A stretch of 64,000 nucleotides of DNA from Octopus vulgaris (lineage: Eukaryota), in assembly GCA_951406725.2 (NCBI GenBank), contig OX597832.1:53444001-53508000 (forward strand). Reading direction: 5' to 3'. Each line of letters begins with the position of its first letter. Positions within the stretch are counted from its first letter, which is position 1. The translations under genes and the position numbers were made by a program. The notes under the pieces were generated by a model. The model searched no databases. It was given only the letters and a program-made list of their open reading frames with translations, and was not told the origin of the DNA. Below, one piece after another: positions 4,233 to 64,000 of the stretch.

Positions 4233-4597
4233 TGTTGGGGCTAGAGAAAATGTGTCTGTCAGAGTGCGTATTCAAAAATAGATGGATGCGTGTTGCACGG
4301 ATGCTAGGTGTGAAAGACCTTGCATGAACACGCCATGATCACTTACCAAAAGGTTTCAGTTAAAATAACAGGGCTCGTGGGGTCGGCTATCCTGTTTTTT
4401 TGACTGTTCTTGTAACTCATTCGATTTCATTGTAAATAATTCATTCGATTTCATTGTAAATAATTCCATTTCATCCACATGACCCCAAATCATGTTGTAT
4501 TGTCCCCATCTGTGTAAACCCTTATGGGTGATAAAGAAATTTAAGTTTACGCACCACATAGCTAGATGTGCTTAGAAGAAAAGTTGTAGCATTTAAA

Positions 4598-24796: not shown

Positions 24797-24839
24797 TTTT
24801 TGATAAGGTTCGTCATTTCAAGAACCGAAACATGTTAAA
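24797..24839 (+). ncRNA. Minimal hammerhead motif, U3-A8 variant (mirror 13587-13629 on -)
   Basis: TTT-TTGATAA-GGTTC(GTCATTTCAA)GAACC-GAAA-CATG-TT-AAA. Confidence 0.65.
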
Positions 24840-27519: not shown

Positions 27520-28000
27520 CCAAGTAGCAGAAAGATCGCCCAAAAGTGTATATAGATATCTAAATGTATTTATATATTCATCTATACACATATGTATGTA
27601 TAATGTGTGTGTATATATTTCCATACACGTAACCATTCACTCCGCACAAAGTTTTTTAGGACGAAAATAAGATCTAAAGTTATCTCTAAGTAGCACAGAG
27701 ATCGCCCAAAAGTGTATATAGATATATAAATGTATTTATATATTCATCTATGCACACATGTATGTATAACGTGTGTGTATATATTTCCATAGAGGTAACC
27801 ATTCACTCCATACAAAGTTTTTTAGCACGAAAATAAGATCTAAAGTTATCTCTAAGAAACAGAAAGATCGCCCAAAAGTGTATATAGATATTTAAATGTA
27901 TTTATATATTCATCTATACACACATGTATGTATAATGTGTGTGTATATATTTCCATAGAGGTAACCATTCAATCCATACAAAGTTTTTTTAGGACGAAAA
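27520..28000. repeat. 166-bp minisatellite x3 inside Helitron (also ~61615-62132)
   Basis: GATCGCCCAAAAGTG at 27534, 27700, 27866. Confidence 0.9.
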
Positions 28001-28249
28001 TATTTATATATAAAAGAAAGGTTGTGTGTCTGTCTACTCCGATTTAGATTCCTAACTACTCCCACATTTTGCGATGCAGTTTAACCAAAACTGGGTATCT
28101 TATAGTCGTGATTCATATCGAGCCCTTCTGGGTATTAGCGCGCGTCTACGATGAGTCTATGATTTTACAAATAATTTACCATCATTTTTTTCCATTTTAA
28201 TGCATATTTTTAAAAATAAACGGAAGTAACTCTCAAACTTCACACCAAT

Positions 28250-28771
28250 ATGCGTGCTCATATGCGACGTAATATCACATCAGCAGCATTTCCTCACACC
28301 CTCCTTGCACTTGGCGAAGGAAAAATACCAGGGGATGAAAATGGTAATATTGCCATCGATTCCATTTGTACCATTGTTAAGACGCCTTCTGATCTCAGAG
28401 ATGCAGTGTTCCCAGATCTACAAGCTAATTATCAGAATATGGATTGGATTGGCAAAAAGGCTATACTGGCCCCGAGGAATAAAACTGTTCACCATATTAA
28501 TGATGAAATGCTAAAACTCATTCCTGGGGAAGTCTATGTATATCAGTCTATCGATACAACTCCTGACCCAGAGGACGTCATCAACTATCCAATAGAGGTA
28601 CTCAATTCCTTTGAGCACCCCGGACTACCACCACACTTTCTCAAACTTAAAGTTGGTGCCCCTATAATGCTCATCAGAAATTTGGTTCCCCCAAAACAAT
28701 GCAATGGCACACGTTTGATCGTTAAGTCCTTATCTCCCACCGTAAGCTTATATCAATATTTGCCTGAATAA
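28250..28771 (+). pseudogene. PIF1-family Helitron helicase fragment, 173 aa open
   Basis: LLALGEG, KAILAPRN, YQSID, YPIEVLNS..PGLPPHFLKLKVGAPIMLIRNL...CNGTRLIV. Confidence 0.9.
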
Positions 28772-28857
28772 TCATCATAATTCAGTGCAATCATTAACAG
28801 TACTTTCAAGCAATTCAGCTCCGAGCAACGCCGGGCAATTCTGCTAGTATATATATA

Positions 28858-29020
28858 TAATAGTTATCGCCAAGCTAACATGTGCTGCTGATTAGCTCCA
28901 AGAGGTCGTCGCCTCTAGCAAGAGGTCATCACCTCTAGCAGCATTCATCCTATTTTTCTGGACTGCCATGTTAGTTTGGCGATAACTATTAATATCCAGC
29001 TGCCGTAGTCTCCTTAGAGA
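28858..29020. mobile_element. Internally deleted relative of the fold-back element at 59597-60033
   Basis: Same termini TAATAGTTATCGCCAAGCTAACATG / CATGTTAGTTTGGCGATAACTATTA and the same one-sided tail TGCCGTAGTCTCCTTAGAGA. Confidence 0.75.
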
Positions 29021-29325
29021 CTTTGAAATATTTTTAGAAAAAGATTGTCAAAAGTAAAATGTAAAAGCTTTGTAAAAGCTTTGTTGTGTAAATGACTGGT
29101 TGTGACAAAATATTACAATATATATATATATACATTCTTTGATAATAATAAGAAAATGTTAAAAAACAGTTTACAAGGAAATATCTTGAGAAAATATTAA
29201 ACAAAAATTTCAAAAAAGAAATATATAATTGGATTTCGTTAAAAATCATGTTTTGTTTGGAAGAATCTATATATATACACAGAAAGGTATTAGTTCAAAG
29301 ACAGTCATATTTGGTAGTATATATA

Positions 29326-56476: not shown

Positions 56477-59448
56477 TGTGTGTCTGTGTTTGTCCGCCCA
56501 GCATCTCTAGACAACAGATGGTGGTGTGTTTACATCCCCGTAACTTAGTGGTTCAGCAAAAGAGACCGATAGAATAAGTACTAGGCTTACAAAGAATAAG
56601 TCCTGGGGTCAATTTGCTCCACTAAAGGCGCTGCTCCAGCATGGCCACAGTCACTTGACTGAAACAAGTAAAAGGGTAAAGAGAGTACATCTCTAGCTAA
56701 ATTCATACATTCTCTCAATGATAATCTATACTATAATGGAGAAAACGGCTTATTAATTAAGTATTAAACAATTACTAAAAGTATTAAAAGAAAGCAATTA
56801 TTAAAAGGATGACCATCTGGAAATATTTTTATAAATTCATGTTCCAAGAGATTTCCTATAATTTCGATTTTTCAAGTTCGTTGAATTTTTATAACTCCAA
56901 CTTCTCACATATTTAAATATTCATTGCGTCCACTGTGTCCAATTCTTTACAAATTTAAATATTCATTGCATTCACTGAGGAGTATTCCATTCTTATTTGC
57001 AAAGTCTCACTCTCTCTCTCTTTTAATGTTTTCATTTCAAGTTTTAATTTGCTATTTGGAAAACTGACAGTTTATTCTATTAATGTATATGTAATGTAAA
57101 AACATTATTTATTGAATGAAAATTTTAAAAAAATATCTGTATAATTTTTGTAAAAAAAATTTTAAGTAATTTTGTTTTGTTGTTATGGCTGTTTGGAACA
57201 CTATAAGCCTTACAATAATAACTATCCAGACTGATTTTGGCCATTTTCCTTTATAACTTAAAAACCATGGGAGGAACTTTTACAGTAAAAAAAAAAAAAA
57301 TTGTAAATATTTCCAGATGAAATGGTGAACAATTCAAGGGCGGCTTCGCTGTTATTTCTAGCACAACCAAAACCACCCTCCCTTTTCACTTTCACCTGTA
57401 TTGATGTTTTTTTCAATATTTTTCTCCCATTAAACACATTTTATGAAATGTTGGTGCCGAAGTAACATGCGCTTGGTCCATTGATGGAAGAAAACCAGCA
57501 AAATAAATTGTAATCTAAATTTTTGACCCCACCATCACTTTTGTGAAGTTTTGTCAGTGAACAGGTCGCAGTTTCAAACCGACAAAAATGTTTTGACACA
57601 AAGGAAATTTAAATATTGAAGTGAAACTGTTTATGTGTGTTCCTGAATGGCTAACAAACATCTTCCACATTGCAATTGTTTTCTTTCAGCACATGATCTC
57701 AGATCAGGTCACTTGCTATGCAAGTACATTTCGATATTCTTTTTAAATCACTGTGAATAAATGCCAGCAATGACAGAAGCAATTGAGGGCAGGGAGTGGG
57801 GTTGCAAAAAAATTCGTAATTTCTCAAATTTTCTTTTTTATAGCATACAAATGCATTTATGGTGGAGGGGATATTGAAAATCATCAATACATGTGAGAGT
57901 GATAAAGAAACGAGAAGGGTTGCTTTTGGTTGTGCTAGAAACAGCAGCAAAATTGCCCTTAAATCACTCACTTTTCTCTTGGAAAATATTAACAATTAAA
58001 AAAAATTTTTTTCTGAAAATTCTCTTCCAATGGTTTTGAAGTGTAAAAAAAATTGACTTAAATAGGTCCACAGCAGGATTATGAGGGAGGAGGGTTGTAA
58101 AAAATGCTTTTTCAAAACTTTTTCATACAAAGATGTTCCTCTCCCACAATCTTATCATTTTGGTTTAAACCAGGCTGTGGTTTAAAAAAAAATGGAGAAA
58201 ACCCTGCCAAAAATTTTCCCCACAAATTTCTTTAAAATCATAATCTATGCCATTTGAAAGGAATTTGCATAAATTTTCATTAAAAGATACCCATTTTCCT
58301 GAAAGTTATGAGGCGAAAGAGTCAGGTCGTGTGAATGTTCCAAAACTCCTCTCCCCACCCCCTCAGAATAATTCTTTCCCATAAATCCCTATATACTCTG
58401 AAGCCACAATATCTAAGCAGTATTTGTAGAAAATTTTGTCAAAAAGTATCCATTTTTCTGGATGTTATGAGGTAACAAATTCGGGGACATATACATCTGT
58501 AGTAATGCCCTTTTATTTATATGACGTTTTCATTTCATGTTTTTTCATTCATTGTTTGCAATGTTCTCAGTCCCTTCCCACTCTCTCATGTACACACACT
58601 GCAAAGCTTACAGATGGGCTGCTCAATTGTAATCTCTATGTTGCTTTGAGGGGAAGGTAAAACTTGACAAATTGCTTCTCCTTCTGTTGTTGGACTACCG
58701 TGATGTTTGTTTAAAACAGAGAGATTATGACTGTGATAAAATAATGAAAGCAATATTTACGAAGCAAATGAGCACTATTATACAAAGAAATAATTAGACA
58801 AAAAATATGAAAATTATTAGAATTGGGAATCAAATGTGAAAATATTATCAAGGGGCTAGCACTTTAAATCTCAGCAATGACCCCCCTCCTCTTCATCCTG
58901 ATGAGGAGGTCATTGCCAAGATGCACTTTAACTGTAATCGAATGGTAGCAATGAACTCCTGAAATGGCCATGGACTCTAATCAACCATATTATTAATTGA
59001 ACATTTTGGACATATTATTAATTGAACTAATTGAACTTTTTGGACATACTTTTTGTATGAGGGGAGTAAAAAAAAAACTTTTTTCGATGATTAATATTTT
59101 ATTTTATCTTATTTAAATTTTTAGTAGCATGACACGCTTTAGAACTTTTAGTCGATTCCATTTATTTTTTTGACAGGTCATTCTATATATCTGTATTTTT
59201 ATTTGCATATACATTTTTACCTTCTGTGATTTTTGTAGATGTATAATCTATATGTTTAAGAACCGTGGTAATATTTATATGGGATCAAATGTTTGGAGGT
59301 ATGGTGTTACATATAAAGACAACTCAGATTTGATGTTTGTTCTATAATCTATGTTTCTTTATCTCTGTCTCAATTACATTTGAGCACTTTATTTTTGCAG
59401 TCCTATAAACCCTTTTGTTTTCATAAAAGAGACAAAAATTATTTCTTG

Positions 59449-59495
<47 letters not shown>

Positions 59496-59544
59496 TATAT
59501 ATATACATATACATATATACACACACACACACACACACAAACAC

Positions 59545-59577
<33 letters not shown>

Positions 59578-59596
59578 AATATCATTATTTCTAATT

Positions 59597-60033
59597 CTCT
59601 CTAAAGGAGACTACGGCATCGGTACTAGATATTAATAGTTATTACCAAGCTAACATGGCAGTCCAGAAAAATAGGACGAATGCTGCCGTTGATTAGCTCC
59701 AAGAGGCCATCGCCTCTAGCTAGCTATGTGACACATAAACCTGTGTCCATTATAACTTTTGAACAGGGGAGGTCACCAGCTTCCCTGTCGGTCAGCCGCG
59801 ACGTCTGCTGGTTCGGCTACTCCACATTGATAAGAGGCAAACACCTCAAAACTAGTCTGGATGCCAGACCAGCAAGGGGAAGTGGCTGACCTTCCCTGTT
59901 CGAAGGTTGTAATGGACACAAGTTTGTGTGTCACATAGCTAGCTAGAGGCGAAGGCCTCTTGGAGCTAATCAACGGCAGCATTCGTCCTATTTATCTGGA
60001 CTGCCATGTTAGCTTGGCGGTAACTATTAATAT
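59597..60033. mobile_element. Fold-back element, 147-bp arms (59629-59775 / 59887-60033), HHR-like motif at apex
   Basis: Arms reverse-complementary; apex 59821-59861 TCCA-CA-TTGATAA-GAGG(CAAACA)CCTC-AAAA-CTAG-TC-TGGA. Confidence 0.8.
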
Positions 60034-60039
60034 ATATAT

Positions 60040-60412
60040 ATCATCATCATCATCATCATCGTTTAGCGTCTGCTTTCCATGCTAGCATGGGTTGGACGGT
60101 TCAACTGGGGTCTGGGAAGCCAGAAGGCTGCACCGGGCCCAGTCTGATCTGGCAATGTTTCTATGGCTGGATGCCCCTCTTAACGCCAAAACACTCCATG
60201 AGTGTAGTGGGTGCTTTTACGTGCCACTGGCACAGGTGCCAGACGAGGCTGGCAAACGACCACGATCAGATGGTGCTTTTTACGTGCCACCGGCACGGGG
60301 GCCAGGTGAGGCTGGCAAATGACCACGATCGGATGGTGATTTTTACGTACCACCGGCACGGGTTCCAGGCAAGGCTGGCAAACAACCACGATCGGATGGT
60401 GCTTTTTACGTG
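60040..60412 (-). mobile_element. RTE 3'UTR fragment
   Basis: Reverse complement of ~42020-42370 with tandem units and (GAT)n. Confidence 0.85.
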
Positions 60413-60873
60413 CAAATAAATATATATAACAGGAGTGGCTGTGTGGTAAGTAGCTTGCTTACCAGCCACATGGTTCTGGGTTCAGTCCCACTGCATGGCA
60501 CCTTGGGCAAAGTGTCTTCTACTATTGCCTCTTTTTGTTTTCTTACATTGAAATTCATACTTATTAATCTCCTATCCCTTAAAATTGTTTCTGTTCTTAG
60601 AGATTTTTCAGGTCTATGCGAGTTTGTTATGTTGTATCCATATAAACATATAAATATTTGTATATATGTATTTATGCATATATATGCATAACCTATTAAT
60701 TTCTTGTCCCTTATAAATTGTTATCTTTTTTGTTCATAGATACAGGTCTATGCGAGTTGGTTATATTATATCCATATAAACGTATAAATATTTATGTATG
60801 TGTGCATGTGTGCACATAGATAAATATGTGTGTGTATCTGTACGCATCTTTATTTTTTCTGATTCTTGGCTTA

Positions 60874-62978
60874 TCTCTTATTATAAAAGGCAGATTTTAT
60901 CTGCCTCCCTTTGTCTCTTATAGAAATCTACAATATAGGATTTCTTCAATTACAATTTACCTAGCATTTTTAAGAGTAGAATGCATCGGGTCGTGCCAGG
61001 TCCAGTTTTTCAAATTTCAACCCCAATTAAGCAAAATTTCGAGAAAACTCACATTGTGGTGTGTAAGTGAAGTGCTTTCCTTAGTGTGGGCTACAGCACA
61101 CACACACGCACACACACACAAACGGAGCGAAGTGCTTCACTGAAGCTATCACCCTAATTTCTCCTCCTTTCTCTTTGCAAGTGTGCAACGATTAAAGTGA
61201 AAGTATTTATATAAAACGAGAGAAGTGTACCTTAAACCACTACTCAAAAAAAACAACAACACAGCAAACAGAAACAAATAAATACATAACGATTTACTCC
61301 TCACACAATTTCTTCAATTAGAGTTTACCTATGATTTTTCAAAGTACTTCCATTCGGTCATGGCATACAAAATTTCTTTCAATTTCACCCCCATTTCAGA
61401 AAAAATTCGAGAAAACTAAATATTTTACCATTTCACTCTTTCACTCTGCATTCCCACTTCCTCTTTACACACATAGACACGCAAATATATAAATAAAATT
61501 GTAAGCTAACGTGTGTGTGTGTGTGTGTGCGTGTGTGTGAGTGTGTGTGTGTGCGTGTGTGTGTGTGAGGGTGCGTGTGTGTGTGTGTGTGCGTGTGTGT
61601 GAGTGTGTGACAGGAAAGTTTTTTAGGACGAATATAAGATCTAAAGTATATCCAAGTAGCAGAAAGATCGCCCAAAAGTGTATATAGATATTTAAATGTA
61701 TTTATATATTCATCTATACACAGATGTATGTATAATGTGTGTGTATATATTTCCATACACGTAACCATTCACTCCGCACAAAGTTTTTTAGGACGAAAAT
61801 AAGATCTAAAGTTATCTCTAAGTAGCACAAAGGTCGCCCAAAAGTGTATATAGATATATAAATGTATTTATATATTCATCTATGCACACATGTATGTATA
61901 ACGTGTGTGTATATATTTCCATAGAGGTAACCATTCAATCCATACAAAGTTTTTTAGCACGAAAATAAGATATAAAGTTATCTCTAAGAAACAGAAAGAT
62001 CGCCCAAAAGTGTATATAGATATTTAAATGTATTTATATATTCATCTATACACACATGTATGTATAATGTGCGTGTATATATTTCCATAGAAGTAACCAT
62101 TCAATCCATACAAAGTTTTTTAGGACGAAAATATTTATATATAAAAGAAAGGTTGTGTGTCTGTCTACTCCGATTTAGATTCCTAACTACTCCCACATTT
62201 TGCGATGCAGTTTAACCAAAACCGGGTATCTTATAGTCGTGATTCATATCGAGCCCTTCTGGGTATTAGCGCGCGTCTACGATGAGTCTACGATTTTACA
62301 AATAATTTACCATCATTTTTTTCCATTTTAATGCATATTTTTTTAAATAAAGGGAAGTAACTCTCAAACTTCACACCAATATGCGTGCTCATATGCGACG
62401 TAATATCACATCAGCAGCATTTCCTCACACCCTCCTTGCACTTGGCGAAGGCAAAATACCAGGGGATGAAAATGGTAATATTGCCATCGATTCCATTTGT
62501 ACCATTGTTAAGACGCCTTCTGATCTCAGAGATGCAGTGTTCCCAGATCTACAAGCTAATTATTAGAATATGGATTGGATTGGCAAAAAGGCTATACTGG
62601 CCCCGAGGAATAAAACTGTTCACCATATTAATGATGAAATGCTAAAACTCATTCCTGGGGAAATCTATGTATATCAGTCTATCGATACAACTCCTGACCC
62701 AGAGGACGTCATCAACTATCCAATAGAGGTACTCAATTCCTTTGAGCACCCCGGACTACCACCACACTTTCTCAAACTTAAAGTTGGTGACCCTATAATG
62801 CTCATCAGAAATTTGGTTCCCCCAAAACAATGCAATGGCACACGTTTGATCGTTAAGTCCTTATCTCCCACCGTAAACTTATATGAATATTTGCCTGAAT
62901 AATCATCATAATTCAGTGCAATCATTAACAGTACTTTCAAGCAATTCAGCCCCGAGCAACGCCGGGCAATTCTGCTAG
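60874..62978 (+). mobile_element. Non-autonomous Helitron, copy 2 (helicase fragment 62381-62902 with in-frame TAG)
   Basis: Same termini as copy 1: A|TC ... CCCGAGCAACGCCGGG..CTAG|T. Confidence 0.9.
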
Positions 62979-63139
62979 TAATTAATATATGGATAGCATG
63001 TTTATCTTTCCAATATTCCACGAGTAAATGTCCAGAGAAGTCTTTATAGAAACCTCCTAATAAATAAATAAATAAGTACATGAATGAATAATAAACTGAT
63101 TGTATGTAATCTTTCCTCTTTAATGTTGAAAATTGATGT

Positions 63140-63189
<50 letters not shown>

Positions 63190-64000
63190 ATTTTACTTAT
63201 TTTGGTTATGATATGATTTTTGATAATCTTAAATTTTATCTTTATACACCATAGCAATATTGTTTATAAACAATCACCCATATTACCCTGTGATAAAATT
63301 TCCTCTGTATTAACATCATAGGTTTTATTAGCATCTTGCCCTTTTAACTGGTAATGAACATCATGATTTAGAGTCTACCCCAACCCAGTCTCCTTTATAG
63401 AATGTTACTTTATACCCAATTTACTACTCCTAATATCTTGACAATATTTATGACCATACCAAGCCATGAGCTGTCAACTCACACTTGCCCTTCATTCCAA
63501 ATGGACACAGTCTTAGATTTAGTAGTTGATAAAAAGACAAATAAATAAGACACACACAGTCTTAGATTTAGTAGTTGATAAAAAGACAAATAAATTAGAA
63601 ATGAACCACAATTCTTTACAGTCAATGACCCCAGTAAGCTTCATGCTTATCTTGGAAGTGTAGTATATTCTTAGTTACAATAGCGACAACATGGATTTCT
63701 TTTATCTTCTTGCTCTGTTAAAGTATTTAAGTAAAATTATATTAATGTGTCTGACTGATTAAAATTCTATTTATTTATCCAGTAGATGATAGCCCTGCAT
63801 TTAAATTGATGTAATGATTGCATTGTTCAATTACATGGAGCTGCTTGTAACAGTTGTACTGCATCACTTCTTGATATCCTGTTGCTTATTTTGATTTTTT
63901 CACCTTACTTTGAGCTGTGTGGATAATACCGGACTAACTTGGTGCTTCAACTTAAGCACCTAATTCAACTGAATATCAATTATTTCTGTATATGTGTGTG

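Follow-up and report, generated by a model that had tools for sequence, protein, structure and literature searches.

An aged insertion of a 361-nt non-coding hammerhead repeat in the Octopus vulgaris genome, likely copied by a Penelope-like enzyme

The window analysed here is a stretch of 64,000 nucleotides of Octopus vulgaris (contig OX597832.1, positions 53,444,001 to 53,508,000), which carries a fold-back element close to its right end (Table 1). The element is bordered on both sides by (TA)n, and these direct flanks mask any target duplication. It is composed of pieces of a monomer that we number from the base directly 3' of the predicted cleavage site of its hammerhead. The left arm differs from the majority sequence of its subfamily at 9 of 213 positions and the right arm at 14 of 249 positions, and three polymorphic sites distinguish the two arms from each other. 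The first-pass annotation had described a fold-back with arms of 147 bp beginning at 59597. The fold-back itself is confirmed by the RNA fold (-315.6 kcal/mol, z = -32), but the arms comprise 160 nt at 91% complementarity (59626-59785 and 59877-60036), and with the complete tail the element already begins at about 59573. The RNA fold also contains the pairing that had been noticed to continue from the arms up to the apex. This inward extension is the monomer's own stem, which prolongs helix I.

Table 1. Coordinates of the insertion, its parts, and a related copy in the window
Feature	Position	Strand	Description
Whole insertion	59573..60032		Two pieces of the 361-nt monomer, both truncated at the 5' end and inverted to each other; 3' ends outward
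Left arm	59573..59785	-	Monomer 22-234; stops at the distal 3' site
One-sided tail	59573..59629	-	57 nt; monomer 178-234, delimited by the two fixed 3' ends
Right arm	59787..60032	+	Monomer 290-361, then 1-177; crosses the cleavage site and stops at the proximal 3' site
Hammerhead	59815..59865	+	Degenerate type I with U3-A8 core; carries G12A (59848) and lacks 2 nt of helix I on its 3' strand
Two-armed relative	28850..29030		Internally deleted; with tail, without hammerhead

The surroundings of the element are rich in other repeats. Right after it, a common repeat begins in (CAT)n and contains three 63-nt tandem copies at 60215-60413. The same contig contains, at a distance of about 200 kb, a segmental duplicate of the region 56744-64000 in inverted orientation (98% identity), which includes the same damaged copy. 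Locus L002 is part of a 98%-identical segmental duplicate and does not represent an independent insertion. Helitron-like fragments are found at 27748-28858 and 61880-64000. The former encodes a Pif1 2B domain (28382-28744, E 1.6e-15) and ends in a hairpin and CTAG, and the internally deleted relative of the element sits only a few bases past this end. As had been annotated, this relative is two-armed, has the same tail, and lacks the hammerhead; its identity to the element is 84% over 101 nt. A PLE-like GIY-YIG endonuclease fragment at 2-259 scores below the Pfam cut-off. Further hammerhead motifs of the window are located at 24800 (+), 13626 (-), and 26436 (+); two of these match the pLTR hammerhead of the Penelope-like element (PLE) family with a 781-aa ORF described below, and one belongs to another family that is also present in locus L077.

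The hammerhead motif at the apex is found where the first-pass annotation had placed it, with TTGATAA at 59827, GAGG/CCTC at 59834-59847, AAAA in place of GAAA at 59848, and CTAG-TC up to 59857, after which cleavage is predicted. The exchanged G12 is part of a CpG (family CCTCGAAAC), which fits the suggested CpG decay, and the same change is seen in 3 of 60 aligned copies. Neither the core nor helix I of the window copy is intact, and the ribozyme is predicted to be inactive because of G12A at this CpG and the 2-nt deletion in helix I. Rfam searches gave no hammerhead match for the window copy at E<=10, only microsatellite noise, and none for five other loci at E<=0.5, which included intact copies and a PLE locus.

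To describe the hammerhead of the family, 60 of 69 matches were aligned; the dropped rows are a segmental duplicate, an identical tandem row, four truncated rows, two rows with indels, and a spurious one. The family consensus, proposed by the first-pass annotation as a check, restores GAAA, which is present in 54 of the 60 copies, and G12 is present in 57. The U3-A8 pair is found in 56 copies and replaced by U-G in two, and C17 is invariant. With a 3-8 pair in the core N3-U-G-A-N-N8-A, GAAA, and a UH cleavage site, the family hammerhead is, based on its sequence, a type I hammerhead with a U3-A8 core. Helix I comprises 6 bp, helix II 4 bp, and helix III 1-2 bp with a palindromic loop. Standard pairs account for 92.4% of the hammerhead cells of the alignment compared to 87.4% when shuffled and 24-51% when slid. 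Changes on both sides of a pair are found in helix I (CG 31/UA 21 and AU 41/GC 12) as well as in helix II (GC 36/AU 12 and AU 28/GC 18). These covariation tallies count copies of a few subfamilies and not independent events, and two of the five measures, those counting pairs or types, were no better than shuffles. Of the 60 copies, 50 have the helix III loop CUAG and 9 have CAUG, and the loop is palindromic in 34 of 37 further motifs (17 CAUG, 14 CGCG, 3 CUAG, 3 non-palindromic). Metazoan type I hammerheads are described with helices of 6, 4, and 1-2 bp and a palindromic loop, and U3-A8 is a known PLE variant (PMC4209133). The family hammerhead matches this canonical geometry and would be suited to cleavage as a dimer.

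A second hammerhead-like motif is located at about monomer positions 228-275, directly after the tail and about 90 nt upstream of the main hammerhead (e.g. in loci L105, L110, and L099). It is missing from the window copy and has 433 exact pattern matches; the young subfamilies have GAAA at this motif, whereas the subfamily of the window copy has GAAT. This motif was not classed as a ribozyme, its helix I being off by one base and two unpaired bases preceding helix II, in addition to the GAAA missing from the window's subfamily. A heterodimer with the main hammerhead was rejected as well, given that the main loop varies between CUAG, CAUG, and CGCG and the second motif does not follow.

A search of the 2.8-Gb genome with the window copy yielded 103 matches from the 40 candidates scored out of 2775. 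In an alignment of 23 loci the unit of the family turned out to be an ORF-less monomer of 361 nt, which is circularly permuted between the loci. The apex is present in both orientations relative to the tail, and several copies run beyond the tail into fresh sequence that reaches another hammerhead. The family is dispersed, as had been supposed, with 618 exact genome-wide matches to a strict pattern of the intact hammerhead (control 0), which is a lower bound because the pattern misses the CGCG subfamily. Head-to-tail dimers of the monomer gave five pattern matches (control 0). Tandem arrays have a period of 361-362 nt and comprise up to 5.5 units. In the 5.5-unit array, the units are 98.9-99.7% identical, and the array closes in the tail and (TA)n. 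The young array-forming subfamily and the window's subfamily share 77% identity. The longest ATG ORF in a monomer dimer encodes 55 aa, in agreement with the annotation of the element as non-coding. The monomer is thus a small non-coding unit with one hammerhead each, found in tandem repeats, which supports the retrozyme-like nature that had been proposed. None of the monomer loci examined has an ORF combining RT and GIY-YIG domains. Contigs from runs presumed to be RNA span the monomer but are uninformative with respect to level, strand, ends, and circles. A dip in depth over the hammerhead was dismissed as a signal because the same dip is found in a large run of undefined kind. One 3.5-kb stretch (L100) contains insertions from at least four different families with hammerheads, nested in one another.

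The ends of the copies are not distributed alike. In 56 loci, 39 of 95 outward 3' ends are located at positions 161-180 and 36 at positions 221-240, so that 75 of the 95 fall into two 20-nt bins around positions 177 and 233. The 98 5' ends of 56 loci are spread evenly over all 18 full bins. Among 79 loci, 54 are two-armed, all of them (54/54) with the 3' ends outward, and 25 contain one orientation only. In the set retrieved by the window copy, each of the 23 two-armed loci combines a short and a tailed end, although the query itself favours such pairing. In two sets not picked by this query, 21 of 31 two-armed loci have a short and a tailed end, three have like ends, and seven could not be classified; compared to an independent choice of the ends the pairing is significant at p = 0.04 and 0.006, respectively. 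The first-pass annotation had taken the rod with the hammerhead at its tip for the functional unit. This is contradicted by the variable arm length, by the apex in either orientation relative to the tail, and by the 25 of 79 loci with a single orientation. The long arms are therefore a by-product of the two-armed insertion of the 361-nt monomer and not the unit of the family. In 39 of 41 cases, the two arms are closer to each other than the median of their distances to other loci, but in only 9 of 41 cases is the arm-to-arm distance no larger than that to the closest other locus. Both arms might have been derived from one RNA template or from two, and gene conversion between the arms is also possible.

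Target duplications, which had been suggested as a further check, are probably present at some loci. Flank repeats of at least 8 nt were found in 14 of 79 loci compared to a mean of 2.7 in shuffled pairs. Roughly half of these repeats can be put down to low complexity or boundary artefacts, and about seven of the 14 are clear duplications of 10-14 nt; the window copy has its (TA)n only. Taken together, the family has 3' ends that are fixed and 5' ends truncated to varying extents, along with an inverted copy and a one-sided tail. By comparison with described insertions, we regard the scattered 5' and fixed 3' ends, the one-sided tail, and the occasional duplications as the insertion marks of a PLE. 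PLE insertions are reported to be truncated at the 5' end, to form partial tandems, and to include an inverted copy and, at one end, a tail of 30-40 bp (PMC8557442), and for PLEs target site duplications of 8-10 bp and a mobilisation in trans through pLTRs have been described (PMC3846280). In vitro, a PLE protein cleaves both strands of AT-rich DNA and extends them, initiating at two sites within the RNA that flank the tail (PMC11167929). The family shares with the endonuclease-bearing PLEs the 5' truncation, the tandems, the inverted truncated copy, and the one-sided tail, as well as AT-rich or (TA)n targets, probable target site duplications (10-14 nt at about seven loci here, 8-10 bp in PLEs), and two RT start sites, here predicted, that bound the tail. 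It differs from PLEs in lacking an ORF, in its tail of 57 nt instead of 30-40, and in its canonical hammerhead (6/4/1-2 bp) instead of the minimal geometry reported for PLEs. As in the family, covariation at the U3-A8 core is described for the U3-A8 variant of PLE hammerheads from Schistosoma mansoni, and metazoan PLE hammerheads have palindromic positions 15.2-16.2 and loop 3, which suit dimer cleavage (PMC4209133). However, that work describes U3-A8 in minimal hammerheads, whereas here it is found in one of canonical size.

In its composition the family resembles the animal non-LTR retrozymes. These are small ORF-less units, with 330 and 350 nt in the axolotl (PMC7229834). Like the monomer they contain one type I hammerhead, are present as monomers, dimers, and multimers, and are found alongside PLEs (PMC7229834; bioRxiv 10.64898/2026.07.22.740005). 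The axolotl HHR_Amex1 also has a weak helix III with a palindromic loop. In contrast to the animal retrozymes, the family has a U3-A8 core, the loci analysed are mostly dispersed two-armed insertions and not long arrays, and the monomer has no pLTR homologue among the PLE families sampled. The word "inverted" is absent from PMC7229834. In Xenopus, only one of nine predicted retrozymes cleaved in vitro (bioRxiv 2026.07.22.740005).

Based on these data, the window locus is best explained, with a probability of roughly 0.86, as an old and mutated insertion of a non-coding repeat of 361 nt with a hammerhead, a non-LTR retrozyme, that was likely copied by a PLE reverse transcriptase-endonuclease. 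The copies could instead be mere pLTR stumps of an autonomous PLE and not a separately replicating non-autonomous unit. Their insertion marks equal those reported for PLE stumps (PMC8557442, PMC3846280), and the PLE families were sampled only partially (150 of 6136 GIY-YIG candidates scored), but the tail of another monomer and no ORF follows upstream of the 3' end, ORF-less arrays extend to 5.5 units, and RT or EN matches are absent within about 1.5 kb of the monomer in 60 + 40 partly overlapping locus records. We therefore regard this explanation as unlikely. It is hardly probable that the family represents a non-autonomous element of the Helitron/Helentron type, with subterminal inverted repeats and a terminal hairpin, that moves by rolling-circle DNA transposition. 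The small hairpin in the tail, the tandem arrays, and the Helitron-like end adjoining the relative at 28.9 kb would suit such an element, but not the scattered 5' truncation with fixed 3' ends and target duplications of 10-14 nt, which together with a motif acting at the RNA level point to reverse transcription. The least probable of all is a DNA transposon of the MITE or foldback type, with long TIRs and a hammerhead likeness by chance, as might be assumed from the 160-nt inverted arms, the absence of an ORF, and the high copy number. This explanation is largely refuted by the varying arm and element lengths, the asymmetric ends, the inverted arm absent in 25 of 79 loci, the tandem arrays, the lack of a short TSD of fixed length, and the conservation and covariation of the hammerhead, so that the family is indeed unlike MITEs, as first annotated.

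The first-pass annotation had also proposed to look for an autonomous partner. Intact PLEs are abundant in the genome, but none of the sampled PLE families shows DNA similarity to the monomer. Scoring 150 of 6136 candidates yielded 148 GIY-YIG matches, and intact ORFs combining RT and GIY-YIG of 781 aa and 775 aa were found. All 76 scored copies of the 775-aa ORF are identical to the query at the protein level (100% over its length). In the 781-aa family, the nuclease is preceded by a CX4CX2C motif as in Neptune/Nematis. Its hammerhead has a U3-A8 core with a CAUG palindrome, its one-sided tail is optional, and its flanks are (TA)n. Similarity between monomer and PLEs at the DNA level was absent in 33 GIY-YIG locus records plus L102 and L103, which include both families; the monomer and the 781-aa family have only the hammerhead core type in common. 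A monomer copy in locus L079 was considered as part of a nearby PLE, but about 500 nt of microsatellite lie between the two, and the copy is probably a separate insertion. Both young PLE families have a separate reading frame upstream of the RT ORF (L081 445-1482; L102 from about 4710 onward), and the one in L081 matches no Pfam family above the cut-off. In addition, the pLTR of the 775-aa PLE (L102 about 4460-4505) contains, as judged by eye, an apparent minimal hammerhead with a U4C-type core and an AGUACU palindrome.

The following mechanism could account for the insertions. Tandem copies would be transcribed, and the transcripts would cleave themselves as double hammerheads via the palindromic helix III. 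The unit RNAs released by this cleavage may circularise. Both strands of an AT-rich target would be cut by a PLE protein, and reverse transcription would be primed from the two DNA ends, at monomer position 177 from one end and at position 233 from the other. Two incomplete cDNAs joined at their far ends would result in the fold-back. Arms that cross the cleavage site and near-identical multimers call for a template that was either a circle closed again by ligation or a multimeric RNA left uncleaved, and the data fit both.

A further reading is tentative. The family might be the fossil record of the copying of small circular RNAs by a Penelope enzyme. In this scenario, both DNA strands would be cut by an RT-endonuclease acting as a dimer, and reverse transcription would begin on each strand at a fixed RNA site particular to that strand, always yielding one short and one tailed end. 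The enzyme would roll round a self-ligated circle of 361 nt and thereby generate near-identical multimers. The second hammerhead-like motif by the distal start site could be a binding or start signal for the enzyme; the young subfamily keeps this motif adjoining the distal start site.

The window locus itself is a dead copy of an already known kind of element. The family belongs to the animal non-LTR retrozymes, of which it appears to be a new member, and it inserts like a PLE without being an autonomous PLE. A description of an octopus retrozyme was not found in the literature searched, and the main text of the Octopus vulgaris repeat annotation (PMC13282606) contains neither "ribozyme" nor "retrozyme" as a whole word. 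The mobilisation of animal retrozymes by PLEs has been proposed in print but not shown. For this question the family is useful because it has the insertion marks of PLEs on an ORF-less unit and provides exact predicted start sites at 177 and 233. In addition, its three compensating palindromes (CUAG, CAUG, and CGCG) predict cleavage as a dimer. If the family is indeed the fossil record of a Penelope enzyme copying RNA circles, it would be direct genomic evidence that PLEs mobilise retrozymes, and it would offer a compact substrate for in vitro work.
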